A stretch of DNA of 64,000 bases from Acidimicrobiales bacterium. Its GTDB lineage: Bacteria > Actinomycetota > Acidimicrobiia > Acidimicrobiales > SZUA-35. Numbering within the stretch: position 1 is the stretch's first letter; each line of letters opens with the position of its first letter. The stretch is taken from the NCBI GenBank assembly GCA_013003535.1, contig JABDIY010000025.1, forward strand, positions 33,321-97,320, in the 5' to 3' direction. Shown piece by piece: positions 1 through 32,320 of this stretch. Made by a program: the position numbers and the translations under genes. The notes beneath the pieces were generated by a model that ran no database searches, was not told the DNA's origin, and saw only the letters and a list, made by a program, of their open reading frames with translations.

Positions 1-3000
1 GAAACGGCGATCTCGTTCCAGCTGCGGTCCCAGAGACGAACCGTAGAATCCCGGCTGACGCTTGCCAGTAGCTCGCTATTGGTGCTCCAGGCCACATCTC
101 GCACGGCATCGGTGTGGCCACTGAGGACTGCTGCGGTCTCCCATTTCCCTGTTTCCAGCACCAGCACGTCGGGCGATGCACCGGCGATGGCGAGGAAGTT
201 CTCGGCGGGATCGAATTCGACGGCTCGCACTTCTACTCCCAGGTCGATGATCTCGGTGAGGCTTGGCTCGGTGGTTGAGTCGAGCACAAGAACCTGGCCG
301 CCGAGGGTCGCGCCGACCACCGTTCCGCTGGCGAGTCCGATGGCGATCGCCTGAACGCGGGTCTGCGCTCTACCGACTATTCGCGCCTCACCGGAGGCGA
401 GGTTGACTTCGTGAAGAGCGCCATCGGTGTCGCCGACGTAGGCGAGGCGGCCATCCGCGGTCAACGCCAGGCTGACGAGGGGCGAGCCGAGATTGACTAG
501 CTCCTCTGCTCCTTGTGGTGTGCTTCGCACGATTCGGCCGTCGGAGCCGACGCTGATCGCTTCTGCGGGGCCCGCAAGCTCTACAGCTTGCGCCCGATCT
601 CGGTGGGCGTCGACCACGCTTGTGCCAGCGCTCGCTGTCCACCAGATCAGCCTTCCCGAGCGGCCAGCGGCAACGATTACCTCGGTGTCTTCGCTCGCGT
701 CCAGATCGAGCACCCCTTGTTCGGATCCGGTCTCGGCCAGGGTGTCGACGGCACTCGTTCGTCCCGATACCCATCGGCGAACCGTGCCGTCGCTGCCTGC
801 GGAGACAACGGTGCTCCCGGCATAGGTCACATCTTGCACGTCTCCTTGATGGCCGGTCAGCTCGGTGATCGGGATTCGCAGATTCTCTGGCGACCACAAC
901 CGAATCGTCTCATCGGCGCCGGCAGTGGCGAGCTCGCCCCCGTCGCTCCGTGCGGAGACCGCATAGATCTCGGCGCGGTGGGCTTCATCGATCTCCGTCG
1001 TGGTGTCGGCAGCCTGATTCCACGCTCGAATCGAGTGATCACGACCCACCGAGATGATCGTGTCGCCGACAACGGTGACGTCATGGGCGACGTCGTTGTG
1101 TGATCCCGGTGCAATCGTCACTCGGCTGTTTCCGATCTCAAGCTCGCTGACTCGACCTTCTCGATCGCTGAAAACCAGTCGATCGTTCCCCTCGCGCCAT
1201 TCGATGGAGCGAACCTCGGAATCTGTTGCGTGGCTCAGTTGAGGAGCACCGTTTCCAAGCTCCCACAGCCAGATCCCTCCGTCGCCGGCGACCGCCGCAA
1301 GCGTACCGTCACTGCTGACCGCCACGGCCCGTAGGCGAGCTCCGTCGGTGTTGGTCTGGCTGCGTCCCGATCCACTATCTGATTGAGATCTGCCGCCCCC
1401 AGCTCCTCTAGCGGCGCCGCTCGGCGACGCAACAACGTGCTGCTCGGCAATCGAGCCGTCGCCGGCTTCCCAAACCCGCACCGAGCCGGTCGCATCTATC
1501 GAGACGACCCTGTCCTCGCCGGCAATGAATGCAATATCGCGCACCTCACCGTCATGTCCTGCGAGCTGAATGATCGAACCGTCGGGCCGCCAGATCTGCA
1601 CCGACCCGTCGACTCCTCCGGAGGCAACCATCCCATCGGCACGGGCAGCAACGGCCCGCACCTGCCCCGAGTGCTGGAGCACGATCTGGGACTGGCTGAT
1701 TTCCGCAACGAGCGCTGCGAATAGCGCCTCGCGTGTTTCTTCGGTGGAGCTCACCTGGTCGCCGGCTACCGCGAGAACCGCTGCGAGTGGTAGATCGGCA
1801 CGGAGCAGAGCGGTCTCGGACTCGCTGGCCAGCCGGCGGGCGAGCGCCAGTTGCGACGCCTCCTCGGCACGCGTTGATTCCCGAAGAGCGAGAACCGCAC
1901 CCGCAACGGCGCCGACCAGGAGCAGCACGAGGGCTGAGGCAACTACTTGTCGGACTCGCCGGTTCCGGGTTCGCCGCGCCTGGGAAGCCCGGAGGAAATC
2001 TGCCTCCGCGACCGAGAGGTCAGGGTGAGCCCGACTCACCCATCCTTCGCTCTGTTCCAACACCGAACCCTGCTCCAACAGATCAGCGGTTCGACCCTTC
2101 TCGTGCCACGCCCGGGCGGACTGCCGGAACTCGTTCGCAGTGGCTAGGTCGGCTCGGGAGGCGTCGACCCACTTCTGAAGCTGGGTCCAGCTCGTCAACA
2201 GGGCCTCATGCGCCAACTGGACGCCGTCATCAGTGATGGTGACCAGCCGATGCTGGGCAAGTCGGTCCACCATCGTTCGCTGTCTTTCCGATAGCTCCTC
2301 GCGTGTAGCGGACCCTCGGACGTCGGGTTGGCGTCCCGTAGCTGGCACGATCAGACGCAGGAGAAGTCGTCGCAGCGTCTCCCGCTCGTCTTCCTCCAGG
2401 GATCGGGTGAACTCGTCAGCCGTCCCGGCGAGAGCGCCGGCGATTCCCCCGATCTCGAGGTAGGTGGCCAGCCGAAGCCGGTCACCGCTACGCCGAGCAA
2501 AGATCGTGGCCAAGGCGTGCGATACGTGAGGTAGCGCTGCGGGGGCGTCGAAGGCGTCGTCGACCATTTGCTCTACGAGAGAGTTCTCGATTGGCACGCC
2601 TACGCGCAACGCTGGCCGCTCGATCGCTCGGCGGAGGTCTGCCCTTGCCATCGGACCCACGAAGACGTGTCGGCCGAGCAGGCTGGCTAGTCGGGCGTCG
2701 CTGCCCAGCGGGCCGTAGAAGTCCGAGCGGACACCGAGGATGACCCGCGTTCGTGTCCCGACCTCGGAGAGTTCGATGATCGCAGCGATGAATTTCTCTC
2801 GCTGAGCGGGGTCGGTGCATTGGGTGAGCACCTCCTCGAATTGGTCGATGATAAGAATCTGTCCGCTTCTGCCCTCAGCTGCTTCGCTGCTAGTTGGCGG
2901 CCAACCGACCGTGCGCCGTAGGCGGCTGATCGGTTGCGGGCCCGGCGTGAGGAGTGTCACCGACCACGTAATCTCCTCGCCGAGGCCGCCGGCGCGAATC

Positions 3001-4040
3001 CGTGGGATCAGGCCGGCTCGCAATACTGACGACTTTCCCGCCCCCGATGGTCCGCCTACGATCAGGATGCGATCAACGTGGAGCCGATCGACGATCTCGT
3101 CCACTAGTAACTCCCGACCGCTGTAGAACGCGGCTCGACTCTCGTCGAAGGCGCGCAGTCCGGGATACGGGTTGATGATCTCCGCATCGACCGGCGGCGC
3201 CAGAACCGGCGTTCCTGCGTCGACGAGCGCGCGTAGCGCCGTGGACCATTCGTCGATCGATGAGAACCGGTCCTCTGGGGCCGGGGCGAGACCGCGGGCC
3301 AGAACCCTGCTCCACGGCTCAGTGAGTTCAGCGAGCCGGCTTCGCAGCTCCGGCGGGGTTGGTGGGGGAGCGCCGGTGACGACCTCGCACAACACTGCGG
3401 TAGCAGCGTAGAGGTCGGTGCGATGGTCGACGCTCGACAGGGGCGTCAGCTGTTCGGGCGCCTGGTATCTTGGCGTCCCTCCCAACATCGTCAATGCGTC
3501 GACGCCGGCGCTGAGGTCCTTTGCCAGGCCGAGGTCGGCGATCAGCAGGCGCTCGTCTGGATCGAACAGCTGGCGCTTGGCGGCATCGGGGCGATCGGTC
3601 GTATCGATCAGCAGGTTCCGTGGAGTGATGTCGCGGTGCACTACATCGGCTCGACGGAGCGCATCGAGTCCAGTGCTCACAACATCGATGAGAAGGTGCA
3701 GATCGGCGTTAGTCCACGACGCTGATCCGCCCCGTGCGTCGAGTCGATCGGCCAGCGTACCTCGTTTTGCCAGCGTCATTGTGAACCAGGCTCGACCGTC
3801 GTCGGTCTCGCCGATGTCAAACACCCGGACGAAGGCTGAACAGTCCAAGCGGCGCAGTAACCGTGCCTCTTGAATAAATCGTTCGCGAATTTCCGGATCT
3901 CGGCTCCAACCGATATCGAGTATCTTCAGCGCAACCGTGGTGTCAAGGACCTCGTCTGCCGCCGAGTGCACAGCAGCAAATGCGCCGCGGCCGAGTTGAC
4001 GGTGGACACGATACCGGTCGATCTGCGTCGAGCCGATCAC
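1..4040 (-). CDS. Ser/Thr protein kinase, STAND-type P-loop NTPase (nSTAND-like), single TM helix and WD40-repeat protein; the 3-prime end lies beyond the window edge (>1346 codons)
   Basis: Absent from the ORF track because no stop lies in the window. Hand translation of the minus strand from GTG 4040 stays open to position 1. Kinase motifs: GRGAFAAV..VALK, HRDITPRNLLI, ADLGLAKD, GTPRYQAPE (about 4040-3250). P-loop GGPSGAGKSS (about 3059-3025) and Walker-B-like ILIIDQFEE (about 2858-2831). Helical region ends ...HEALLTSWTQLQKW. Hydrophobic segment VVASALVLLLVGAVAGAVLAL lies at about 1948-1886. Many WD40 units follow (GHDGEVRDIAF, GHQGDVQDVTY, GHTDAVRDVAW..SRDSTVRLWD). Confidence 0.85.
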   Translation of the reverse strand, partial: MIGSTQIDRYRVHRQLGRGAFAAVHSAADEVLDTTVALKILDIGWSRDPEIRERFIQEARLLRRLDCSAFVRVFDIGETDDGRAWFTMTLAKRGTLADRLDARGGSASWTNADLHLLIDVVSTGLDALRRADVVHRDITPRNLLIDTTDRPDAAKRQLFDPDERLLIADLGLAKDLSAGVDALTMLGGTPRYQAPEQLTPLSSVDHRTDLYAATAVLCEVVTGAPPPTPPELRSRLAELTEPWSRVLARGLAPAPEDRFSSIDEWSTALRALVDAGTPVLAPPVDAEIINPYPGLRAFDESRAAFYSGRELLVDEIVDRLHVDRILIVGGPSGAGKSSVLRAGLIPRIRAGGLGEEITWSVTLLTPGPQPISRLRRTVGWPPTSSEAAEGRSGQILIIDQFEEVLTQCTDPAQREKFIAAIIELSEVGTRTRVILGVRSDFYGPLGSDARLASLLGRHVFVGPMARADLRRAIERPALRVGVPIENSLVEQMVDDAFDAPAALPHVSHALATIFARRSGDRLRLATYLEIGGIAGALAGTADEFTRSLEEDERETLRRLLLRLIVPATGRQPDVRGSATREELSERQRTMVDRLAQHRLVTITDDGVQLAHEALLTSWTQLQKWVDASRADLATANEFRQSARAWHEKGRTADLLEQGSVLEQSEGWVSRAHPDLSVAEADFLRASQARRTRNRRVRQVVASALVLLLVGAVAGAVLALRESTRAEEASQLALARRLASESETALLRADLPLAAVLAVAGDQVSSTEETREALFAALVAEISQSQIVLQHSGQVRAVAARADGMVASGGVDGSVQIWRPDGSIIQLAGHDGEVRDIAFIAGEDRVVSIDATGSVRVWEAGDGSIAEQHVVASPSGAARGAGGGRSQSDSGSGRSQTNTDGARLRAVAVSSDGTLAAVAGDGGIWLWELGNGAPQLSHATDSEVRSIEWREGNDRLVFSDREGRVSELEIGNSRVTIAPGSHNDVAHDVTVVGDTIISVGRDHSIRAWNQAADTTTEIDEAHRAEIYAVSARSDGGELATAGADETIRLWSPENLRIPITELTGHQGDVQDVTYAGSTVVSAGSDGTVRRWVSGRTSAVDTLAETGSEQGVLDLDASEDTEVIVAAGRSGRLIWWTASAGTSVVDAHRDRAQAVELAGPAEAISVGSDGRIVRSTPQGAEELVNLGSPLVSLALTADGRLAYVGDTDGALHEVNLASGEARIVGRAQTRVQAIAIGLASGTVVGATLGGQVLVLDSTTEPSLTEIIDLGVEVRAVEFDPAENFLAIAGASPDVLVLETGKWETAAVLSGHTDAVRDVAWSTNSELLASVSRDSTVRLWDRSWNEIAV

Positions 4041-12956: not shown

Positions 12957-14372
12957 ATGTCAACGATGCTCGTGAAGGACGCCGAAGTGTTGGTGACGAT
13001 GGACGACGAGCGCCGGGAGATCGCAGGTGGGGGGTTGTTTGTTCGAGACGGCTTTATCGAGCAAGTGGGCTTGACCGATGAATTGCCCGCAGCGGCCGAC
13101 AGGGTTCTCGATATGTCCGGCCAGGTGGTGCTTCCCGGATTCGTGAACACGCACCACCATCTTGGCCAAACGCTGACGAGAGCACTGCCCGCCGCGCAAG
13201 ATCTGAACCTGTTCCCGTGGTTGCAGGCCCATTATCGAGTGTGGGCAAAGATCACACCGGAGGCGACACGGACGAGCACAATTGTCGGGCTGGCCGAGTC
13301 GGCGCTCTCCGGTTGCACGACGATGTTCGACCACTCCCACATTTGGAAAAGCGGGTCCAAGGTCGATCACCAAATCGCTGCTGCCGAGGAGATAGGGGTC
13401 CGTTTTCACGCGTCGAGAGGCAGCTTGTCGCTGGGCGAGTCCGACGGAGGTCTCCCCCCAGATGATGTGACGGAGGACGAAGACTTTATTCTGGCGGATT
13501 GTCAAAGAGTCGTGGAGGAATACCACGACGCAGGGAAGGGCTCCATGGTGCGGATCGTCCTCTCACCGTGCTCGCCGTTCTCGGTTACCGCCGACCTTCT
13601 CAAGAACACCGCGGAGCTTGCCCGCCAGTACGACTCAGTTGGACTCCACACTCACCTGGCCGAGACCCTCGATGAGGAGCAGTACACACTCGAGCGGTAC
13701 GGGCTGCGCCCTGTCCAATGGATGGAAAACGTCAATTGGCTGGGCAACGATGTTTGGTTCGCGCACGCAGTGCATGTGAATGACGACGAGATTGGCCAGT
13801 TCGCGGCAACGGGGACGGGGGTGGCACATTGCCCCAATTCGAACATGCGGTTGGCGTCGGGTATCGCGCCGGTCAAGGCCTATTGCGATGCCGGGGTGAA
13901 CGTTGGAATCGGGGTCGACGGATCTGCGAGCAGCGATGCCTCCCACCTTCTTCTCGAAGTCCGTCAGGCGATGTACTTGGCACGGCTCAAGATGGCGCTG
14001 CGGCCCCCGGAAGGACCGATGACAGTACTGTCCACGTCCCATCCGCTGCGGCGTGACGAATGGGTCACGGCTCGGGACGCAATCGAGATCGGGACCCGCG
14101 GAGGTGCTGCGGTGCTAGGCCGCGACGACATCGGTCACCTGGTCCCCGGGATGTGCGCCGACTTCTTCTCCATCGATCTCAACACGATCGACCTCGCCGG
14201 CGGAATGGCCGATCCCGTGGCGGCTCTTATCTTCTGTGCCCCGCAGAAGGCCAAGTACACCGTTGTCAACGGAGAAATCATCGTGGAAGATGGCCAGATT
14301 GCTACCGTGGAAATGAGCTCCCTCCTCGAAGAACACCAGCGTCACGCCCAAGAGCTGCTGACAGGCGAGTGA
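12957..14372 (+). CDS. Metal-dependent amidohydrolase (guanine/8-oxoguanine/chlorohydrolase-like deaminase family)
   Basis: 471 aa. The PGFVNTHHHL metal-binding HxH is present, with later HTHLAE, HAVH and GVDGSAS motifs typical of the amidohydrolase superfamily. A strong GAGGGAGG Shine-Dalgarno precedes the start. Confidence 0.85.
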   Translation: MSTMLVKDAEVLVTMDDERREIAGGGLFVRDGFIEQVGLTDELPAAADRVLDMSGQVVLPGFVNTHHHLGQTLTRALPAAQDLNLFPWLQAHYRVWAKITPEATRTSTIVGLAESALSGCTTMFDHSHIWKSGSKVDHQIAAAEEIGVRFHASRGSLSLGESDGGLPPDDVTEDEDFILADCQRVVEEYHDAGKGSMVRIVLSPCSPFSVTADLLKNTAELARQYDSVGLHTHLAETLDEEQYTLERYGLRPVQWMENVNWLGNDVWFAHAVHVNDDEIGQFAATGTGVAHCPNSNMRLASGIAPVKAYCDAGVNVGIGVDGSASSDASHLLLEVRQAMYLARLKMALRPPEGPMTVLSTSHPLRRDEWVTARDAIEIGTRGGAAVLGRDDIGHLVPGMCADFFSIDLNTIDLAGGMADPVAALIFCAPQKAKYTVVNGEIIVEDGQIATVEMSSLLEEHQRHAQELLTGE

Positions 14373-22735: not shown

Positions 22736-23920
22736 TTAGTGGGCCTTGGCCCGTGCTTGTCTACGAGCGTCGGCGGGGCCGCTGGCTCGCGCATGTCCCG
22801 CGTGAGCCGCTTCCACCAGACGCTGAGAAATGGTAGCGGAGAGATCCGACCGTGCAGAAGCGATCGCCGTAAGTGTGAGCATGTCAGTTCGGGGATCGCC
22901 CCGATGGCAGTGGTCCCAGTCGATGACACCACTGATCTCGTCGCCATTTCGGAGCGTGGCCCCCAACCAGAAATCCCCGTGAACCAGAACGGTCCCGGAC
23001 TCGTCGTAGCTGAGTCTCTGGAGCGTTCCTAGTACAAACCCCGCCCGATCGAGCCATCGCCGCAGTTCGTGCGGTCTCATTTTGAACCCGTCGATGTCCT
23101 GCCCCGGCGTCCATTTCAGCTGGAGACGGTTCGGCGCTGGCTGGGCGATCACTACCGGTGCTAGCCGGAAACGAATGTTCTCCAGCATCTCGAGCGTGGC
23201 TCGCGTGGCCGCGAGATGGGCCGGATCACGGTAGAACTTCTCGACGCCGTACGGACCGGTCCCTAGGACAACCGCGCCTTGATCGTTGTGCTCAACACCT
23301 ATACGTCCCGTTGGTGTGGTGGGTCGATCCAGCAACGGCTGGTCCGAGGCAACCACCATCCACGCAGGAGCCAGTCCTCGACTGCGGCCCCGCTTGGCGA
23401 AGCTACGGAGTAGTGCGATGGCCGTCCTCCGACCGCGGCCAGCCGTGGACATGGCCGAGGACAGCACGATCGATGCAATCGCAGGGAGATCGGTGCGGAA
23501 CGCCGTCGGCGAGGATTGCGAGCTTCTCAAGAGGGCGAAGGTCTGGACGTTGGGACAGCCGGCCGCCTCGAGCCGTCTCCGAACCCTGCCGTACCGCCCG
23601 TAGGAAGTCCCGAGGGGTTTGCCCATGAGCGGGTTGAGGGCCCGGAGCGGGCTGCGGGGGTTGTCCACAACGAGCACGATTCGGCCGCCCGGACGCACTG
23701 TTGACCAGCATGCCTTGAGATCGGTGGAGCGAGCCGGCCCGTCGAGAATGAGCAAATCCCACCCTTTCTCCGATGTGTGGGCGGCGTCCAGCGTCACGAG
23801 TTCAGCTACTCGGTCTTTCAATCGGTTTCTGATCGAAGCCGGATCGGGGCTGAAGACGGCTACTCGTTCGTTCCCTTGGAGGTCAAGAAGCTCGGCCCAC
23901 GCGGCGCGATTTGTTTTCAT
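22736..23920 (-). CDS. Fusion of a degenerate methyltransferase-like N-domain with an aminoglycoside/choline-kinase-like (APH) phosphotransferase domain
   Basis: The ATG at 23920 makes an ATGA overlap with the flippase stop. The C-terminal LVHGDFWLGATLRNGDEISGVIDWDHCHRGDPRTD is the APH catalytic/Brenner motif. The N-terminal DLLILDG..RPGGRIVLVV resembles the class I MTase fold but lacks a clear GxGxG. Confidence 0.6.
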   Translation of the reverse strand: MKTNRAAWAELLDLQGNERVAVFSPDPASIRNRLKDRVAELVTLDAAHTSEKGWDLLILDGPARSTDLKACWSTVRPGGRIVLVVDNPRSPLRALNPLMGKPLGTSYGRYGRVRRRLEAAGCPNVQTFALLRSSQSSPTAFRTDLPAIASIVLSSAMSTAGRGRRTAIALLRSFAKRGRSRGLAPAWMVVASDQPLLDRPTTPTGRIGVEHNDQGAVVLGTGPYGVEKFYRDPAHLAATRATLEMLENIRFRLAPVVIAQPAPNRLQLKWTPGQDIDGFKMRPHELRRWLDRAGFVLGTLQRLSYDESGTVLVHGDFWLGATLRNGDEISGVIDWDHCHRGDPRTDMLTLTAIASARSDLSATISQRLVEAAHAGHARASGPADARRQARAKAH

Positions 23921-25347
23921 GTAAGTCGATCCTCTGTCAACGATTTGAGCCCGCGAGGGCCGGTTGTACGTAGGACGTGGGCGATGCCTAAGTACGCAGT
24001 CCCTGCGAAGGTAGCGGCAATTGGCCACGGTGTCACCTGATCGGCCACTGCGCCAACTGCGTACGCACCAGCGCCTGCCACGACAACGCGGGGAAGGAAA
24101 CCCAATCCAATAGGACCAAGGCCGGGAATTCTCATGAGAATCCACCAGAGCATGGACATCACGACAACCTCGGTGACCAGGGTCGCCACCGCAGCTCCCT
24201 CGAAGGAGTACCGGGGAATGAGAACGAGGTTGATCAGCACGTTGCTGGAGAGTCCGATGAACGTCACCAGCGGATACCAGCGGTGTTTGTCGGCCGCCAC
24301 GAGTGAGTTGAACGCCAGCCCGGTGAAGAACACCACGGTGGTGGAACCCACGAGGATGCGGGCGGCGTCCCCGGCAAATGCATAATCATTGCCATACAGC
24401 AGGCGAATCACCGGCTCGGCGAATAGCAGCATTTCCATGAGGAGCAGGCCCCCCACGAAGCTCAGGTAGATGGCACCCTGGCGAATGGTTTGTCGATAGC
24501 GATCGAGGTCATCCGGCCACGCCTTGGCGAGCACGGTGAGAATGGGAACCGTCAGCGCCGTGGAGGCGAAGCGCGCCAGATCGGCGAACTTGTAAGCCAC
24601 CGAGTATGCGCCAACGGCTTCGAACGTGTCCAGTTTGGACAACATCACAGCGTCAATTCGAAACGAGATCGTGGACAGGGCGCCGCCGAGAGAGAGCGGG
24701 ATCGCTTCGCGAGCCAACCCTTTCCAGATCTGCAGGTCCACGACGTAGTGAAACGGAATCAACCGGCGGGCTCTCGGCAACTTGAAGCCGAGCATCACGA
24801 CTTCGGCGATGACCGGTGGGATCACGAACAACAGCAGTGTTCCACCCCGGACGGCGATGGCAACGGTCACGGCTAGTTGGGCGGCCTGACCGATCACGCC
24901 AGAAATCGCCACGGTCTGGAGACGCATGTGGGCCTGGAACGCCACGTTATAAGCAGCTGATGGCGTGGAGATCAGAAGCGACAGCCCGCCGATGGCCGTC
25001 GCCCGCACCACACTTCCGGGGTAATTGGCCACTACTACGAACAGGATTGACATCAGGTAACCGACCCCACCGAGCATCGTGCGGAGAATGATGTAGGTTC
25101 CGGCAAACCTCGCTTGATCCTGGTTCTTGTCCAAGACTCCGGTGATCGCTAGGCGACCGATCCCCATGTCCGTGAAGATGGTCATCATTCCCAGCAGGCT
25201 GAAGACGAAGGCGAACTGACCGAACTGGTCTTGGTCCAGGGTGCGGACGATCAGAACCGTCCCGGCCCACCCCATCAGTGCGATTCCCAGCCGCCCGAAG
25301 AACAGGGAGCTGGCGTTTGCTAGAAGGCCGCGACCGCTCTCGCTCAC
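23917..25347 (-). CDS. MOP-superfamily polysaccharide/oligosaccharide flippase (Wzx-like), paralogue 1
   Basis: 476 aa, polytopic. The N-terminal block LIVRTLDQDQFGQFAFVFSLLGMMTIFTDMGIGR is typical of polysaccharide biosynthesis transporters. Confidence 0.8.
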   Translation of the reverse strand: MSESGRGLLANASSLFFGRLGIALMGWAGTVLIVRTLDQDQFGQFAFVFSLLGMMTIFTDMGIGRLAITGVLDKNQDQARFAGTYIILRTMLGGVGYLMSILFVVVANYPGSVVRATAIGGLSLLISTPSAAYNVAFQAHMRLQTVAISGVIGQAAQLAVTVAIAVRGGTLLLFVIPPVIAEVVMLGFKLPRARRLIPFHYVVDLQIWKGLAREAIPLSLGGALSTISFRIDAVMLSKLDTFEAVGAYSVAYKFADLARFASTALTVPILTVLAKAWPDDLDRYRQTIRQGAIYLSFVGGLLLMEMLLFAEPVIRLLYGNDYAFAGDAARILVGSTTVVFFTGLAFNSLVAADKHRWYPLVTFIGLSSNVLINLVLIPRYSFEGAAVATLVTEVVVMSMLWWILMRIPGLGPIGLGFLPRVVVAGAGAYAVGAVADQVTPWPIAATFAGTAYLGIAHVLRTTGPRGLKSLTEDRLT

Positions 25348-25377: not shown

Positions 25378-26583
25378 TCATTCTTGGCCGGCATTGCGAA
25401 GCGGGAACTGTGCGTCAACCTTCCAGCGCCCACTCCAGCGCCGGACCATCACGGTCAAATGAGTAATCTCGGCGTTGACCGGAAGATGGGGGAGTGCGGT
25501 GGATTCAACATCGCTGGGGATGACACCTTGTGCGAGGGCCATATGTGGCTGGATGTAAAGGTCAATGTCGCCATAGGGCGGGTAGTTGGGCCATTGCTCG
25601 AAGATCCGGTAGGTGATGGTGCGTATGGGTTCCTCGGGTTCCAGGTTCAAGTAGGTGGTGATCTCATACTGGGCGAGCGAGGTGATGGTGACCTCAAACC
25701 GATCGGTTGCTGCCGCGAGCTGCGCCAACTCGTCTCGGGTTTGCGATGTGATCTTGGGCGGGCGGATGAAAGGGTAAAGGACCGTGATGTGGGCGGGGAT
25801 TCCTCCCGGGGTGGCTCCACCGACGGCATCGAAAAGGTCCTGGGCCTCTGGCACCAAAAACAACAGCGCCGTGGAGCCTCGCAGTCGAGATCTACCCTCA
25901 CCGATCAACCGCCTCGCCGTTGCCAGCGGCGAACGATCTGGCGTGTCTCGCGGCCATGTGTAGGCCGGCGGCAGTTCGAGCCCCGCATGCTCACAGAGCA
26001 GCGTCATGTCGTGGTGGTCTCGTTCCTGGGGTTTGTAGCCGGTATGGGCCCGCACCTGGGTGGTTGCCGATGCGCAAGGTATGTTGCGCATCGTGCGGTT
26101 TGCGTGCAGAACACCAGTGCCGAGGTCCGATGGCTCGAGCGCCGGGAAGTCATCGATGCCGCTGGTGGTGACCATGATGAGATCCACGATCCGACCAGAT
26201 CGATGTCGTAGCACGGACCGCACCGGGAAGTCCCGCCCACTCTGGGCCCGTTTCACAGCTACCTCGTAGCCCAATTCCGCCAACGCTGCCGCTGCTCTCG
26301 CCTCGCCGTCGTCAGCCGCATCGATCCAGATGTCGACGTCGTTGTGGGGCCGAGTCTGACGGCCCAGCAACAGGTCGACACCCCAACCGCCGGTCACCCA
26401 CCACCGGACGCCACCGTCATCCAATGCGGTGGCGACCTCCGCCAAATCAGTCGGCGAGATCCGATAGAAACGCTTTCTGATCTGGCGTACGAACTCCGAT
26501 CGAAAAAGGTCGTTCGCAGCCGGAAGTTGAGCAAATGATCGGGCACTGCTTCGCAGAATTGTCCGTATGTGTTCGCCCAGCAC
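25378..26583 (-). CDS. Fusion of a pol-beta-type nucleotidyltransferase (aminoglycoside/lincosamide NTase-like) with a 2H phosphoesterase (LigT / 2-prime-5-prime RNA ligase-like) domain
   Basis: The N-half carries GGWGVDLLLGRQTRPHNDVDIWI (G-G..D-x-D). The C-half carries AHITVLYPF (HxTx) and PHMALAQG (a second, degenerate Hx[TS]x). Confidence 0.6.
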   Translation of the reverse strand: MLGEHIRTILRSSARSFAQLPAANDLFRSEFVRQIRKRFYRISPTDLAEVATALDDGGVRWWVTGGWGVDLLLGRQTRPHNDVDIWIDAADDGEARAAAALAELGYEVAVKRAQSGRDFPVRSVLRHRSGRIVDLIMVTTSGIDDFPALEPSDLGTGVLHANRTMRNIPCASATTQVRAHTGYKPQERDHHDMTLLCEHAGLELPPAYTWPRDTPDRSPLATARRLIGEGRSRLRGSTALLFLVPEAQDLFDAVGGATPGGIPAHITVLYPFIRPPKITSQTRDELAQLAAATDRFEVTITSLAQYEITTYLNLEPEEPIRTITYRIFEQWPNYPPYGDIDLYIQPHMALAQGVIPSDVESTALPHLPVNAEITHLTVMVRRWSGRWKVDAQFPLRNAGQE

Positions 26584-26690: not shown

Positions 26691-28148
26691 GTGGCGGTGA
26701 CAGGCGAGGTCAGCTCTTCCCAAGAGCGGGATGAACTCAACAATTCGGTGCGTTTTGGCCGTAACACCGCCGCTTTGCTCACGGGGCGCCTTGTCGTCGC
26801 GCTGGCAGGCTGGGCCGGCACCGTTCTGATTGCTCGAGATCTCGGTACGGAGAAATTCGGACAATTCACACTGGTCTTTTCGCTGCTCGGGATGTTGTCC
26901 ATCATCACTGATCTCGGCGTCGGTCGAGTTGCGGTCGCGGCGTTGCTGGATTCTGACGAAGACCGGGAATTGTTTGCCGGCACCTACATTCTTCTTCGGA
27001 CGGTGTTGGGAGGGCTTGGTTATGTTCTGGCCGTTCTCATTGCCCTTTTCGGCGGGTTCCCCAGCCCGGTTCCTTTGGCCGTCGCAATCGGTGGGTTGGT
27101 GGTAGTTTTCGCCACACCGTCGCATGCCTACGAGATCGCTTTTCAGGTCAGGGATCGGCTCACCCCACTCGCCGTAGCGGAATCCCTGGCCAAGTTTGGC
27201 CAATTCGGGCTGATCGTCGCTCTGGTTCTCCGGGGTGGAACCCTGGTTTGGTTCGTCATCCCAGCCGTTCTCAACGATTTGGCCATCCTGGCCTGGAAGG
27301 CTCCCGCCGCTCATCGCCTCATCGGTTTCCGCTATCGGATCGACCTCGGTATCTGGTGGGCGCTGCTCAAGGAGGCGGTTCCTCTTTCGCTTGGCGCCGC
27401 TTTCGTCACGCTCTACTACCGTCTCGACTCGGTCATGTTGTCAAAGCTGGATGACTTCGAAGCCGTCGGCGCATACGGAGTGGCCTACAAGTTCGTGGAC
27501 CTCGTTCATTTCGTTCCCTTGGCGGTTTCGGTTGCCCTGCTGGCGCCGTTGACCGCAGCATGGCCCGTCAACGTCAACCAGTTTCATCAGCGCATCGATC
27601 ACTCACTTCGATTGCTGGGGCTGGCCGCCGGAGCCGGTTTGGTGGGATTCTGGCTCTTCGCCAGAGAAACTGCTGTTCTCCTCTACGGCGGGGATTATGA
27701 CAATGTCGGTCTGGCTACCTCCATCGTGGTCAGCGGCGAAGTCTTGGCGTTCGTTTCCACTGTGGGAATCACGGCCTTGATCGCCGTCAACCGGCACCTC
27801 TGGTATCCCGTGATCACCCTCACCGGTTTGGGCCTCAACATTGCTCTCAATCTGTGGTTGATTCCCTCGTACTCCTTCGAGGGAGCCGCTGTCGCCACAC
27901 TCATTACCGAGGCCGTGGTGCTCGGTCTCCTATGGACCCGATTGCAAAGGATTCCGGGCTGGAGGGAGAGTCGTCATGTTCGGACGTTCTGGCCGCTCCC
28001 GTTTGCGGTGGGAGCTGGTCTGGCCACCGGCTATGGCTTGGAGCAAGTTGTGCATTGGATCCCAGCCGGGATGGCGGCTGTGGGCGTCTATGCCGGCGTG
28101 GCGGTTGCTTTGAAGCTGCGACCCTGGACTGTGGCGCCGTCAGAATGA
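26691..28148 (+). CDS. MOP-superfamily flippase (Wzx-like), paralogue 2
   Basis: 485 aa. It is clearly paralogous to 23917-25347 (LIARDLGTEKFGQFTLVFSLLGMLSIITDLGVGR; FAGTYILLRTVLGG). It is divergent from the NTase-2H gene. Confidence 0.8.
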   Translation: MAVTGEVSSSQERDELNNSVRFGRNTAALLTGRLVVALAGWAGTVLIARDLGTEKFGQFTLVFSLLGMLSIITDLGVGRVAVAALLDSDEDRELFAGTYILLRTVLGGLGYVLAVLIALFGGFPSPVPLAVAIGGLVVVFATPSHAYEIAFQVRDRLTPLAVAESLAKFGQFGLIVALVLRGGTLVWFVIPAVLNDLAILAWKAPAAHRLIGFRYRIDLGIWWALLKEAVPLSLGAAFVTLYYRLDSVMLSKLDDFEAVGAYGVAYKFVDLVHFVPLAVSVALLAPLTAAWPVNVNQFHQRIDHSLRLLGLAAGAGLVGFWLFARETAVLLYGGDYDNVGLATSIVVSGEVLAFVSTVGITALIAVNRHLWYPVITLTGLGLNIALNLWLIPSYSFEGAAVATLITEAVVLGLLWTRLQRIPGWRESRHVRTFWPLPFAVGAGLATGYGLEQVVHWIPAGMAAVGVYAGVAVALKLRPWTVAPSE

Positions 28149-28150
28149 GA

Positions 28151-28630
28151 TCAGCGCTTCTGCTGCTCGAAGATCACTTTTCGGATCACTTCGCTGGCAG
28201 TGAATCGACCGATCGGGCCCGTTGAATACACCGCATTGACCACCCGGCCCTCGGGATCGACGAGGAACGCAGTGGCATGCAAGTAGGTGGTGTCGCCGTC
28301 GTGAACGAACGCACCGGTTGCCGCCGAGACTGCGTGAGGATCAACTTCGGCATACATCGGGTAGCCCACGTGCAGACCCGCTTTGAGCGCAGCAACGCTG
28401 GCCACGGGATCCACCGATGCGGCCGCCACCTTTACACCAATGCCCTTGAGAGGGAGCCCGTGAACTGCGAAGTCGACCAACTGGTGACGGCAGTACGGTC
28501 ACCAATCGCCGCGGTAGAACATCACGACGGCCCAGTTGCCGGCCACTATGGCTGTGATGTCCACATCGTTGGCATCCAGATCTTTGGCAGGCAGTGGCGG
28601 GAGCTCGTCACCGGCGTTGAGATGGGCCAT
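28151..28630 (-). CDS. Thioredoxin-fold redoxin (AhpC/TSA-type, FYRGxW-CxxC family) with an in-frame UGA at codon 44; candidate selenoprotein (W-U-P-Y-C) or nonsense pseudogene
   Basis: Hand translation from the ATG at 28630 gives MAHLNAGDELPPLPAKDLDANDVDITAIVAGNWAVVMFYRGDW-TGA-PYCRHQLVDFAVHG.. The stretch after the TGA is in frame with track ORF 28151..28480, which only begins at an internal TTG. The TGA (28499-28501) sits exactly where the family has its first redox Cys. Confidence 0.6.
28458..28498 (-). other. SECIS-like extended hairpin starting 1 nt after the UGA
   Basis: The RNA is CCGUACUGC-C-GUC-A-CC-AGUU-GG-UC-GAC-UUC-GCAGU-UC-ACGG. It forms about 14 bp in three helical segments. 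The apical loop AGUU has its G about 18 nt downstream of the UGA. Confidence 0.4.
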
Positions 28631-28693
28631 GGTCGGTCAGCCTAGGCCAAGGTTGGGTGTGGCCAAGAACTCACAGCTCGGCGTGGTGGTCGC

Positions 28694-29347
28694 TCAGCTT
28701 TGAAGGTCGGGAAGGAAGGCGTCGATCAGAGCCCTCGCGTGACGGCTGACCGCCTCCGGATCGAAGGGCGAGATGCCCTCGTGAAGTTCGAAGTCCCGGG
28801 CCAGCGCATAGGGAGCGGTTGCCGCTCCGAGGAACATGTGAAAGAGGTGTTCGCGATGGATTGGGAGTTTGACGCCGTCGGCGTCCAGTTCGTCCAGGAG
28901 TGAGTCGAACATCTCGTGCATTGGTCGGACGTGGGTGTGGAGTAGCCAGTCCAATCGTTCACATGGTTTGCTTCCGTTTGCCATGAATCGATAGAGCTCC
29001 GGCCGCTGAGCGAAGAACACCACAAGTTCCACGAGCAGTGTTTCGGCCTTGGCGCGCACCGGATGGTTGACCGTGGTCTCCATCATCGTTCCGAAGCGGG
29101 TGTGGAACTCTCCGAAGGCTCGCTCGGCGGCGGCTTTCCAGAGGTCTTCTTTGGCGGCGAAATGGAACGGCAGCGCCGCCGATGGCACTCCGGCTCGCGC
29201 GGTGATGGTGCGAGTGGACGTTCCGTCGAACCCATGGGCCGCAAACTCAACAAGGCCGGCGGCGATGAGTTTCTGCCGCGTCTCGATGCTGCGATGGTGC
29301 CTCTTGGTCGACAAGTCGATTATCGCCGAACTGGTGACGGTCGTCAT
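28694..29347 (-). CDS. TetR-family transcriptional regulator
   Basis: From the ATG at 29347: ..IETRQKLIAAGLVEFAAHGFDGTSTRTITARAGVPSAALPFHFAAKEDL, a TetR HTH. The track ORF is over-extended to 29548. Confidence 0.85.
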   Translation of the reverse strand: MTTVTSSAIIDLSTKRHHRSIETRQKLIAAGLVEFAAHGFDGTSTRTITARAGVPSAALPFHFAAKEDLWKAAAERAFGEFHTRFGTMMETTVNHPVRAKAETLLVELVVFFAQRPELYRFMANGSKPCERLDWLLHTHVRPMHEMFDSLLDELDADGVKLPIHREHLFHMFLGAATAPYALARDFELHEGISPFDPEAVSRHARALIDAFLPDLQS

Positions 29348-29582: not shown

Positions 29583-30575
29583 TCAGATTTCCAGCACGAT
29601 CTTGCCGGTCGCTCTTCGCTCCATGAGCTCGGTGATCGCCATGCCAGCTTGGTCGAGTGAGTACCTACTGGAGATGAACGGCTTGATTTGGCCCTTGCCA
29701 TACATGTGGAACAGTTCGGCCACGTTCTTGGCGTGCCCCCGAGGATTCGATGCCACGAACGCGCCCCAGAAAACGCCGACGATCTGACAGGATTTCAACA
29801 GCGGAAGGTTGAGCGGGACCTTGGGTATGCCGGCGGGAAAGCCGACAACGAGGTAGCGACCCTCCCAGTTCATGGCCCGGATCGAGGGCTCGGCGTAGTC
29901 ACCGCCCACCGCGTCGTAGATCACGTCGACTCCGCCACCGCCGGCTTCCTTGATTTGGTTGGACAACGCCTTTTGCTGATCACGGTCCAGCGGTTGGCGG
30001 GGGTAGACGATGCCGAGATCAGCACCGTGGTCGAGACAGAGGTCTACCTTGTCCTGGGTGGAACAGCCAGCGATGACCTTCATTCCCATCGCTTTCCCAA
30101 GTTGCACCGCGGCAAGCCCTACACCACCCGCCGCCCCCAAGATGAACAGCGTTTCGCCCTCTTGGCCTTCGGCCCGGTTTTTCAGGGCGTACTGGCTGGT
30201 TCCGTAGGTCATCAGCAGCGCTGCGGCCTCATCGAATGGCATGGCGTCGGGAATCTTGGTAGCCGAGGTCGAAGGCACTTCTATCTCGGTGACCATCGCA
30301 CCCCAGCCGGGGAACGACAGGACACGGTCCCCAACCGCGAGATCGGTGACGCCCTCTCCGACCTCTCGCACAACTCCCGCCAATTCTCCGCCGGGCGCAA
30401 ACGGCCGGGGCGGTTTAATCTGGTAGAGGTCCTGAATGATGAGCGAATCCGGGAAGTTGACCCCGACGGCCTTCACGTCGATCACAACCTTGCCGGGTCC
30501 GGGCCGGAGTGAAGGCAATTCCTTCATCACCAGAGTTTCGGGACCACCGGGCTCGTTCGACAAGACAGCTCTCAT
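29583..30575 (-). CDS. NADPH:quinone oxidoreductase / zeta-crystallin-type MDR
   Basis: 330 aa. ..VKAVGVNFPDSLIIQDLYQIKPPRPFAPGGELAGVV.. and the GAAGGVG Rossmann motif are present. Confidence 0.85.
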   Translation of the reverse strand: MRAVLSNEPGGPETLVMKELPSLRPGPGKVVIDVKAVGVNFPDSLIIQDLYQIKPPRPFAPGGELAGVVREVGEGVTDLAVGDRVLSFPGWGAMVTEIEVPSTSATKIPDAMPFDEAAALLMTYGTSQYALKNRAEGQEGETLFILGAAGGVGLAAVQLGKAMGMKVIAGCSTQDKVDLCLDHGADLGIVYPRQPLDRDQQKALSNQIKEAGGGGVDVIYDAVGGDYAEPSIRAMNWEGRYLVVGFPAGIPKVPLNLPLLKSCQIVGVFWGAFVASNPRGHAKNVAELFHMYGKGQIKPFISSRYSLDQAGMAITELMERRATGKIVLEI

Positions 30576-30697: not shown

Positions 30698-32320
30698 ATG
30701 CGACAAATCGCCAGTCACGTTGACACCGGCTCTGCGGTGTTCAAGGAGAACGTCGAGGCGTACGAAAAGTTGGTCGCAACCTTGCGGGACAGAATGGAAT
30801 GGGCAATCCGTGGCGGCGAAAACCGCGACCGCTCGATCGAGCGGCACCTGGTGCGCGGCAAGATCATGGTTCGCGACCGCATCGATCTCGTCATCGACGA
30901 TCACACCCCTTTTCTCGAACTGTCCAGCTTGTCGGGCTACGGACAGTACGACAATGCCGCTCCCGGCGGTGGCATCGTCACCGGCGTCGGGCTTGTGGAA
31001 GGTGTCCCCTACGTCTTCATCGCCAATGACGCCACGGTCAAAGGCGGCTCGCTCCTGCCGGTGGCCATCAAGAAACACGTTCGGGCCCAGCAGATCGCGG
31101 ATGAGAACGACCTGGGGGTCATCTATCTTGTCGATTCCGGCGGAGCGTTCTTGCCATTGCAAGACGAGATCTTCCCGGACAAAGACCACTTTGGAGGATC
31201 GTTCTATCGTCAGGCTCGAATGTCCGCTCGCGGTCTCCCGCAGATCTCGGTGGTCATGGGTGGCTGTACGGCCGGTGGGGCATACGTCCCGGCTTTGTCT
31301 GATGAGGTGATCATGGTCGAGGGCATAGGCCGCATATTTCTCGGTGGCCCGCCAATCGTGAAAGCTGCATTAGGGGAGGTGATCGATCCTGATGAACTGG
31401 GCGGTGCCCAGATGCATACCCGTGTTTCCGGCGTCAGTGACTACATGGCCTCAACCGAGCGCGAAGCATATGGCCGGGTTCGAGAGATCTGCGCCACAAC
31501 CAACGCCCGCCGGATCGATGATCGTCAAGCTTGGATGGATTGGGTAGAGCCACAGCCCCCGGCGCAACCTCCCGAGGACATCTACGGCATCATCAGCGCC
31601 GATCATCGCATCCCATTCGACGCCACAGAAATCATCGCCAGAATGGTGGATGGATCGAAGTTCTCACCGTTCAAGCCCGAGTGGGGAACCTCGATCATTT
31701 GCGGCTTCGCCAGGATTTGGGGTCACCTTGTTGGAGTGATCGGGAACAACGGGATCATCTTCTCCGAAGCTGCCCTCAAGGCCACCCATTTCATCGAGTT
31801 GTGCGAGCAGCGGCGGATCCCGCTTCTGTTCCTCCAAAACACTTCCGGCTACATGGTGGGCAAGGACTCCGAGGCGGCCGGGATTGCCAAACATGGCGCC
31901 AAAATGGTCGCGGCAGTCGCCAATGCCACCGTGCCCAAGTACACCGTTCTCATCGGAGGGTCCTACGGCGCCGGCAACTATGGGATGTGCGGCCGAGGCT
32001 TCGAGCCTCGGTTCCTGTTCGCGTGGCCCAATTCCCGAATCGCCACAATGGCCGCCGACACCGCCGAGACCGTCCTGGTGGACATCCGGGAAGGCGGAAT
32101 GAAAGGCGCCGAGACCACCGAAGAACACTTGGCCGAGATCCGGGCGGAGATCCGGAGCCAGTATGAAACGCAATCGGACCCCTACTACGCAACCTCCCGG
32201 CTTTGGGACGACGGCTTGATCGATCCCGTCCACACCCGAGACGTTCTAGGACTGTGCCTCGCCCTCGCCGCTCGTCAAGACGAACCGGCCCCCGGGCCCG
32301 GCATCGTGTACCGGATGTGA
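30698..32320 (+). CDS. Acyl-CoA carboxylase carboxyltransferase (beta) subunit, methylcrotonyl-CoA carboxylase type
   Basis: 540 aa. GKIMVRDRIDLVIDD.., FIANDATVKGGS and GGCTAGGAYVPALSD are carboxyltransferase signatures. Confidence 0.85.
   Translation: MRQIASHVDTGSAVFKENVEAYEKLVATLRDRMEWAIRGGENRDRSIERHLVRGKIMVRDRIDLVIDDHTPFLELSSLSGYGQYDNAAPGGGIVTGVGLVEGVPYVFIANDATVKGGSLLPVAIKKHVRAQQIADENDLGVIYLVDSGGAFLPLQDEIFPDKDHFGGSFYRQARMSARGLPQISVVMGGCTAGGAYVPALSDEVIMVEGIGRIFLGGPPIVKAALGEVIDPDELGGAQMHTRVSGVSDYMASTEREAYGRVREICATTNARRIDDRQAWMDWVEPQPPAQPPEDIYGIISADHRIPFDATEIIARMVDGSKFSPFKPEWGTSIICGFARIWGHLVGVIGNNGIIFSEAALKATHFIELCEQRRIPLLFLQNTSGYMVGKDSEAAGIAKHGAKMVAAVANATVPKYTVLIGGSYGAGNYGMCGRGFEPRFLFAWPNSRIATMAADTAETVLVDIREGGMKGAETTEEHLAEIRAEIRSQYETQSDPYYATSRLWDDGLIDPVHTRDVLGLCLALAARQDEPAPGPGIVYRM

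Follow-up and report, generated by a model that had tools for sequence, protein, structure and literature searches.

Is the in-frame TGA that interrupts a redoxin-like gene of an Acidimicrobiales bacterium a genuine stop, the scar of a mutation, or a codon for selenocysteine (Sec)? The gene lies on the minus strand of a 64,000-nucleotide stretch of contig JABDIY010000025.1, referred to here as the window. An initial annotation of this DNA had placed a UGA at the first Cys of a redoxin CxxC motif and had proposed a 159-residue W-U-P-Y-C selenoprotein hidden by stop-based calling of open reading frames (ORFs). Translation of the minus strand from 28630 to 28151 bears out the first of these claims: it yields a single 159-codon frame of the AhpC/TSA fold, the sole interruption of which is the TGA at 28501..28499, within the motif FYRGDW-U-PYC. 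The second claim is supported by a Sec/Cys pair among homologues, by TGA-bearing orthologues, by purifying selection upstream of the TGA and by a covarying hairpin. Judged from sequence, the TGA at 28501..28499 almost certainly encodes Sec and the public databases hold the protein in truncated form; we put the probability that the locus holds an intact gene encoding a 159-residue selenoprotein of the peroxiredoxin (Prx)-like (UxxC) class at about 90%. What is observed here is one frame and one domain running across the UGA, the Sec/Cys pattern, selection on both halves of the gene, a covarying hairpin that fits the bacterial model of the selenocysteine insertion sequence (SECIS), the fold, and membership of a known family. 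The features of the coding sequence on which this reading turns are the following.

28151..28630, minus strand: predicted selenoprotein coding sequence, 159 codons plus the stop at 28153..28151; start ATG at 28630..28628; AhpC/TSA fold with a U-P-Y-C motif.
28499..28501, minus strand: in-frame UGA, codon 44, probably read as selenocysteine; shows the Sec/Cys pattern in homologues and aligns with the Thr of the peroxiredoxin TxxC motif.
28490..28492, minus strand: codon TGC for Cys47, the UxxC partner of the putative Sec44; invariant in 78/78 distinct sequences and aligned with the peroxidatic Cys of AhpC.

The translated frame reads MAHLN...NWAVVMFYRGDW-TGA-PYCRHQLVDF...EQQKR-stop or, in a longer form, MAHLNAGDELPPLPAKDLDANDVDITAIVAGNWAVVMFYRGDW-TGA-PYCRHQLVDFAVHGL...VIFEQQKR-stop. 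The ATG at 28630..28628 is the only start codon among the 45 open codons upstream of the TGA, and the starts of the orthologues are equivalent. In the ORF listing this frame appears only as two fragments, one of 43 aa (28499-28630) and one of 109 aa from the TTG at 28480; the 109-aa ORF indeed starts at an internal TTG and lacks a redox motif, as had been noted. The NCBI record of what is apparently the same gene, 99% identical and on a 128-kb contig, likewise holds a 109-aa product, 'hypothetical protein HKN03_02350 [Acidimicrobiales bacterium]'. When the stop is replaced by Cys, a single Pfam AhpC-TSA domain covers residues 7-131 and runs across the stop (E = 4.7e-19; score 69 bits, cutoff 26), and the Pfam Redoxin model also matches (E = 1.2e-10). 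Additionally, in a scan of the 64-kb window for TGA codons with coding-like sequence on either side, the site at 28499-28501 was the sole credible case.

The homology search returned 93 proteins, nearly all of which were called as products of 89-124 aa that cover the C-terminal ~68% of the query at identities down to ~50%. Of 498 relatives found, homologue DNA was drawn from 80 species-representative genomes, together with five contigs of metagenomic or genomic origin. At the aligned codon, TGA is present in 71 loci (63 distinct sequences), and TGC or TGT in 15 loci; since TGA and Cys codons thus occupy the same position, the family displays the classical Sec/Cys pattern, which is the outcome that had been set as a check on codon 44. 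The TGA loci span 35-90% protein identity and several phyla. They include every Acidimicrobiia/Acidimicrobiales locus sampled, among them complete chromosomes of Ca. Poriferisodalis, as well as bins labelled Verrucomicrobiales, Chthoniobacterales and Acidobacteriota, a Gaiellaceae metagenome-assembled genome (MAG), and Syntrophaceae, Syntrophales and Desulfobacteraceae of the Desulfobacterota. TGC or TGT is found in Ktedonobacteria, Deinococcus and Truepera (Deinococcota), Alphaproteobacteria, Chloroflexia and Gemmatimonadota. Homologues without the TGA carry Cys at codon 44, never Trp or Gly, and these Cys homologues are single proteins of 155-170 aa.

Several entries of the family deserve mention for their own sake. 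Two matches appeared to be full-length and to carry Trp at the Sec site; the underlying DNA of one of them, P0072 (L006:839-841), is TGA and had been called under genetic code 4. The public metagenome proteins P0072, P0077 and P0094-P0096 all show Trp at this site (W-W-P-x-C), with code 4 shown for P0072 and inferred for the rest. On this ground the candidate of a genuine Trp at the Sec site in full-length database homologues was rejected, the other entries being taken to have arisen as P0072 did. The W-W-P-x-C entries are a database artefact that could mislead motif analyses. Furthermore, the bins labelled Acidobacteriota, Chthoniobacterales and Verrucomicrobiales (loci L018, L024 and L025) hold Sec forms 55-71% identical to the window protein, and their SECIS elements resemble those of the Acidimicrobiia loci L023 and L026-L029, which points to lateral transfer or mis-binning. 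In Ktedonobacter (L073:9496 and L078:9496), a second, divergent Cys paralogue (TFYRGEW-C-PYCNLQLHAY) lies ~600 bp upstream of the main Cys-form gene. In Ca. Poriferisodalis, two tandem genes of the ERG4/ERG24 family (sterol-reductase-like; L048:7556-8692 and L048:8732-9874, minus strand) adjoin the redoxin gene. An apparent 318-codon N-terminal extension in the same organism was rejected as the antisense shadow of the ERG4/ERG24-family gene or genes on the opposite strand.

Both flanks of the UGA are under selection. In 71/71 TGA loci, the reading frame ahead of the TGA stays open over 41 codons or more. Comparing the window with L007, L008, L001 and L011, the ratio of nonsynonymous to synonymous substitution (dN/dS) over 33 codons upstream of the TGA is 0.09, 0.14, 0.08 and 0.12, respectively, at synonymous differences of 0.5-0.7; downstream of the TGA the corresponding ratios are 0.05, 0.12, 0.11 and 0.07. 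The upstream 43 residues, which had been described as family-typical, are therefore under the same purifying selection as the rest of the protein (dN/dS ~0.1). Polarising the differences between the window and L007 with eight outgroups assigns to the window's own branch 10 synonymous and 6 conservative non-synonymous changes and 0 indels, corresponding to a dN/dS of ~0.2 on this terminal branch. Taken together, the dN/dS values, the open upstream frame and the changes on the terminal branch indicate that the N-terminal 43 residues have been translated in frame with the rest of the protein up to the present in this lineage.

Directly downstream of the UGA, the transcript can fold into a hairpin of the bacterial SECIS (bSECIS) type, within which a family-wide core can be delimited.

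28458..28498, minus strand: bacterial SECIS-type hairpin of 41 nt directly 3' of the UGA; RNA nt 4-44 counted from the U of UGA; -17.5 kcal/mol.
28472..28488, minus strand: family-wide SECIS core, RNA nt 14-30; 6-bp helix with loop AGUU(G) and invariant A20, G21, U22 and U23; codons Arg48..Asp53.

The initial annotation had proposed a hairpin of about 41 nt with an AGUU loop, a loop G about 18 nt from the UGA and some 14 bp, and such a hairpin is indeed present, with 15 bp counted. These pairs form four blocks, comprising a lower stem of 4 + 5 bp and an upper stem of 3 + 3 bp with one bulged C, capped by the apical loop AGUU, the G of which lies 18 nt after the UGA. Its free energy (z = -2.0; 8/200 shuffles fold equally well) is by itself a modest signal, and it is the comparative data that make the hairpin significant. 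In all TGA forms the core hairpin GUCAAC-AGUUG-GUUGAC, specified by the codons Arg-Gln-Gln-Leu-Val-Asp, occupies nt 14-30 after the UGA. Across 57 distinct sequences, 96.2% of the cells of the 6-bp helix are in standard pairs, versus 2-49% when the partners are slid by 1-3 columns, and 0/500 shuffles match the observed core pairing or covariation score. Specifically, pair 17:27 changes from A:U to G:C in 2 sequences via a synonymous GUU to GUC change, and at pair 18:26 A:U occurs in 39 sequences, G:C in 6 and G:U in 5, with Gln CAA to CAG compensated by Val GUU to Ala GCU. In the window's clade the corresponding codon is His (CAC), and the helix is re-registered to ACC:GGU with the loop AGUU and a bulged C. 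The lower stem is 64% paired family-wide and is therefore clade-specific; as a family feature it was rejected.

The codons that specify the core, rare ones among them, are frozen in Sec forms only: Arg at +4 is CGT in 60/60, Gln at +6 is CAG in 63/63, Leu at +7 is TTG or TTA in 63/63 and Val at +8 is GTT in 52/56, whereas CGT is used for the Arg four codons ahead of the UGA in only 1/63 Sec forms. In Cys forms a near-identical peptide (PYCRQQL-x-DF) is specified by mixed codons, and the hairpin is missing. Over codons +1 to +10, synonymous divergence averages 0.31, versus 0.59-0.60 in the flanks. In the published bSECIS model the apical loop measures 3-9 nt and has, at its first or second position, a G that precedes a G or U; the upper stem counts 4-16 bp, the UGA lies 16-37 nt from the loop and the minimum free energy is -7.5 kcal/mol or lower. 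The element described here falls within every one of these bounds, with a loop of 4-5 nt (AGUU in the window, AGUUG in the family), a 6-bp upper stem, the loop sequence A-G-U, a spacing of 16 nt and -17.5 kcal/mol.

The encoded protein matches solved structures of AhpC/Prx (E ~6e-7) and ResA (E = 6e-6). Aligned with AhpC, the protein has Sec44 at the Thr of the PxxxTxxC motif, Cys47 at the peroxidatic Cys and Arg40 at the Pro, and the catalytic Arg aligns with Ala119, which adjoins the invariant His118; this alignment argues for the fold of a peroxiredoxin combined with a UxxC site of the thioredoxin type. An AlphaFold (AF2) model of the Cys homologue P0114, with a predicted local distance difference test score (pLDDT) of 88 and a predicted template modelling score (pTM) of 0.85, puts the Cys that corresponds to Sec directly ahead of the first long helix (51-62) and matches structures of the Prx6/Prx1 type at a template modelling (TM) score of 0.82.

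Several observations weigh against a selenoprotein at this locus. The spacing of 16 nt between UGA and loop is the lower limit of the published range. The hairpin region gave no Rfam SECIS match, either at the gathering threshold or at E values up to 10, the permissive scan returning a single chance miRNA match (E = 7); the missing match is to be expected because Rfam covers bacterial SECIS elements poorly, as is also stated in the Actinomarina preprint. If the fold is computed with upstream context, the energy minimum shifts to another hairpin, in which the UGA itself is paired. No tRNA-Sec, selA, selB or selD was found in the 64-kb window or in ~1.5 Mb of the relatives' flanks, and selenium incorporation in members of the subfamily, the window protein included, is something that we infer from sequence. 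The alternative fold is an 11-bp hairpin at window positions 28478-28508 (minus strand), formed between CGAUUGGUGAC and GUCACCAGUUG; it sequesters the UGA and draws on both the 5' arm and the loop of the SECIS core. Its formation is confined to the clade whose codon 49 is His (CAC), namely to the window and L001, L003, L007, L008, L015 and L022, and it may be due to chance, given the codons UGG-UGA-C and GUC-ACC, or be a competing fold.

As to the decoding machinery, the tRNAs in the window are limited to tRNA-Lys and tRNA-His (ARAGORN and Rfam), and the same two programs detected no tRNA-Sec in the window or in the 86 loci. SelA, SelB and SelD are absent from the 30 window ORFs annotated with Pfam, and tblastn with the E. 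coli proteins detected no relative of SelD or SelA in the window or in any locus; since the flanks extend only +/-10 kb, this last negative is weak evidence. We presume that this genome carries the Sec machinery (selA/B/C/D). In four family-bearing Acidimicrobiia loci (L002, L033, L034 and L035), a gene for the formate dehydrogenase alpha subunit (FdhA) lies within ~8 kb of the redoxin gene and has an in-frame TGA at the canonical Sec position (CNRT-U-HAPSV). The FdhA of L002 (2287-4215) is annotated as two separate ORFs, 87 and 544 aa long, split at the TGA; it is the only one that was folded, and has a GGUCU-loop hairpin 18 nt after the UGA. Additionally, selC, selA, selD and a divergent selB occur in 84/84 complete genomes of Actinomarina, a member of the class Acidimicrobiia (Actinomarina preprint), and the SelA and SelB COGs are enriched in sponge-symbiont bins, in a set that included Acidimicrobiia bins. 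The Sec-type FdhA in four loci and the sel genes of Actinomarina lend indirect support to the view that Sec decoding operates in the Acidimicrobiia that bear this family.

How do other explanations of the TGA fare against this evidence? That a recent TGC or TGT to TGA mutation killed a CxxC redoxin gene, the alternative raised by the initial annotation, would agree with an annotation that knows only a 109-aa hypothetical protein and with a window in which no Sec machinery is seen. A recent lesion sits poorly, however, with the same TGA in 71 loci at 35-90% identity in several phyla, with an upstream frame that is intact in all of them, with dN/dS values of ~0.1 on both sides and ~0.2 on the terminal branch without indels, and with an intact SECIS hairpin; the nonsense pseudogene was rejected on these grounds, and we regard it as very unlikely. 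In another explanation the UGA is a true stop and the functional product is the 109-aa protein initiated at the internal TTG, perhaps alongside a separate 43-aa peptide, an arrangement that is exactly what gene callers predict in nearly all public records. Yet the initial strands of the fold are missing from this 109-aa piece, as is the redox motif, and its TTG is Leu51 within the conserved hairpin loop, a codon that is TTA in 4/63 distinct Sec forms. Many orthologues have no start at this point, with called lengths ranging from 89 to 124 aa, and the uninterrupted length of the Cys homologues (155-170 aa) and the strong purifying selection upstream of the TGA in the same frame likewise speak against a true stop, to which we accord very little probability.

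Readthrough with a standard amino acid, the UGA being decoded as Trp, Gly or Cys by a reassigned code or by near-cognate suppression, has in its favour the Trp that some metagenome pipelines introduced under code 4. A reassigned code is excluded because TGA is the stop of most Pfam-confirmed full-length genes of the window, e.g. those at 12957-14372, 29583-30575 and 30698-32320. The presence of Cys, and never Trp or Gly, in homologues without the TGA, the restriction of the hairpin with its SelB-type G-U loop to TGA forms and the Sec-type FdhA of relatives also argue against such readthrough, which we consider highly improbable. For a single-base sequencing or assembly error nothing specific can be adduced beyond the source being a metagenome-assembled genome, and the identical codon in 71 independently assembled loci, including long-read complete chromosomes, renders an error extremely improbable.

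With Sec at codon 44, the following sequence of events can be proposed. A ribosome arriving at UGA44 would meet the hairpin directly downstream, whose 6-bp upper stem and AGUU loop, with G-U 18-19 nt after the UGA, may recruit SelB carrying Sec-tRNA(Sec), such that Sec would be inserted at UGA44 instead of termination. The predicted product would combine a peroxiredoxin fold with a thioredoxin-like site, Sec44-Pro-Tyr-Cys47, that directly precedes the N-terminal end of the first long helix. Sec44 would act as the attacking nucleophile on a substrate that is probably a disulfide or a hydroperoxide, and Cys47 would resolve the intermediate as a selenenylsulfide, to be reduced subsequently by what is presumably a thiol reductant.

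Immediately upstream of the gene on the same strand lies a regulator gene, and the two features concerned are as follows.

28694..29347, minus strand: TetR-family regulator gene; Pfam TetR_N, with NCBIfam TetR matches below threshold only.
28631..28693, minus strand: 63-nt spacer from the TetR stop to the selenoprotein start; no terminator-like site found.

Since the 63-nt spacer holds no terminator-like site, co-transcription of the two genes is possible. Control by the TetR gene, as had been suggested from its position 63 nt upstream on the same strand, would be local to this lineage: the adjacency is common only to the window and L007, a near-identical relative that is syntenic throughout, and TetR regulation as a family feature was rejected. 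No conserved neighbour gene was found family-wide; judged by its neighbourhood, the selenoprotein gene appears to behave as a stand-alone unit. The other genes of the window include an oxidoreductase of the zinc-dependent alcohol dehydrogenase (Zn-ADH) type, an acyl-CoA carboxylase and dehydrogenase, polysaccharide-synthesis genes and a STAND-WD40 kinase. The latter, at 3-4040 (minus strand), is a protein of more than 1346 aa that runs off the start of the window and combines a Ser/Thr kinase, an nSTAND1 NTPase (E = 2.5e-104) and WD40 repeats, a predicted STAND-type signalling or conflict-system architecture. At 25378-26583 (minus strand), a 401-aa ORF with aminoglycoside-2''-adenylyltransferase-like and 2'-5' RNA ligase superfamily domains sits between the Polysacc_synt flippase-like genes at 23917-25347 and 26691-28148.

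The value of the finding lies in annotation rather than in concepts: in GenBank and in metagenome catalogues a redox selenoprotein is recorded as a motif-less fragment of 95-113 aa or as a code-4 'WW' protein. The misannotation touches dozens of Acidimicrobiia species, and no NCBIfam model matches at cutoff: AhpC scores 42 bits versus a cutoff of 272, PrxU (NF040737) 30.2 versus 270 and the SelL-related model 19 versus 120. The lack of a model that reaches its cutoff probably accounts for the truncated public annotations, including that of the Syntrophus MAG. A Syntrophaceae member used as query likewise retrieved truncated or unnamed entries and no named RefSeq selenoprotein. A curated model with the Sec position flagged would mend hundreds of records. 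Additionally, the gene offers a marker of Sec use in Acidimicrobiia, whose selenium use is barely documented in the literature searched, and its strongly conserved hairpin is a clean and compact example of a bSECIS, a potential seed for a covariance model.

Compared with known recoding signals, the element resembles the fdhF-type bSECIS of E. coli and the bSECISearch consensus in being an intracoding hairpin just 3' of the UGA, with a small loop carrying G-U at 16-18 nt from the UGA. In E. coli fdhF, an essential loop G-U lies at a similar distance from the UGA. Distinct from the fdhF type, the loop is AGUU(G) rather than GGUCU, and the upper stem is without an evident bulged U, the window element having a bulged C on the 3' arm instead. 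At the level of the protein, canonical peroxiredoxins (AhpC/Prx1, Prx6 and BCP/PrxQ) share the fold, as reflected in the TM score of 0.82 of the P0114 model to Aeropyrum Prx, AhpC2 and Prx6, and their peroxidatic Cys corresponds to Cys47. Unlike them, the window protein has three of the four active-site residues changed (Arg40, Sec44 and Ala119), with only the Cys kept, and it scores far below cutoff with all NCBIfam peroxiredoxin equivalogs. PrxU (TxxU) is likewise an AhpC/TSA-fold selenoprotein with an in-frame UGA and a SECIS downstream, but its Sec is at the peroxidatic Cys, whereas that of the window protein would be three residues earlier, at the Thr position. ResA/TlpA-type oxidoreductases share the Trp-preceded CxxC-type motif and the thioredoxin-like fold (weak matches, E = 6e-6). 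They differ in being extracytoplasmic and membrane-anchored, a signal or anchor not having been noticed in the 159-aa protein, for which no dedicated search was made, and the best sequence and fold matches of the window protein are peroxiredoxins.

The closest counterpart is Prx-like 1, a family of pfam00578 with a UxxC motif, 225 Sec and 2,740 Cys sequences of which are counted in the Global Ocean Sampling (GOS) data (PMC2398784). It has been described as Prx-like with UXXC replacing TXXU (PMC1088965), and a 'Prx-like thiol:disulfide oxidoreductase' is reported in Syntrophus, Desulfotalea and Geobacter (PMC1794560; PMC13188914). Its first report is credited by PMC13188914 to Kryukov & Gladyshev 2004, with further accounts by Zhang & Gladyshev 2005 and 2008 (PMC1088965, PMC2398784). 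The Acidimicrobiia-type signature (UPYCR[QH]QLVDF ... YSTGPIGRF) was not found in the part of the GOS supplementary sequence file that was searched. We propose tentatively, as a suggestion that is on balance doubtful, that the sequences YRGxW-U-P[YF]CRxQL[VA]DF ... H-A ... YSTGPIGRF may form a distinct, uncurated subfamily that is near-universal in Acidimicrobiia of soil, marine and sponge-symbiont origin, with a near-invariant SECIS shared with Verrucomicrobiota and Desulfobacterota, joint lateral spread of gene and recoding signal, and systematically truncated annotation. The likeness to Prx-like 1 as a whole is close: both belong to PF00578, carry UxxC where peroxiredoxins have TxxC or TxxU, have many Cys homologues and occur in Deltaproteobacteria and marine metagenomes, and the catalogued GOS members share the signature YRGHW-U-PYCRRQL...AASVD...YSSGPLGR. 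Specifically, the window protein is 38% identical over 126 residues to GOS JCVI_READ_286511, listed as '#Prx-like 1' (E = 1e-23). Because this selenoprotein family has been catalogued since 2004-2008, the window gene adds a member to it rather than founding a new family.

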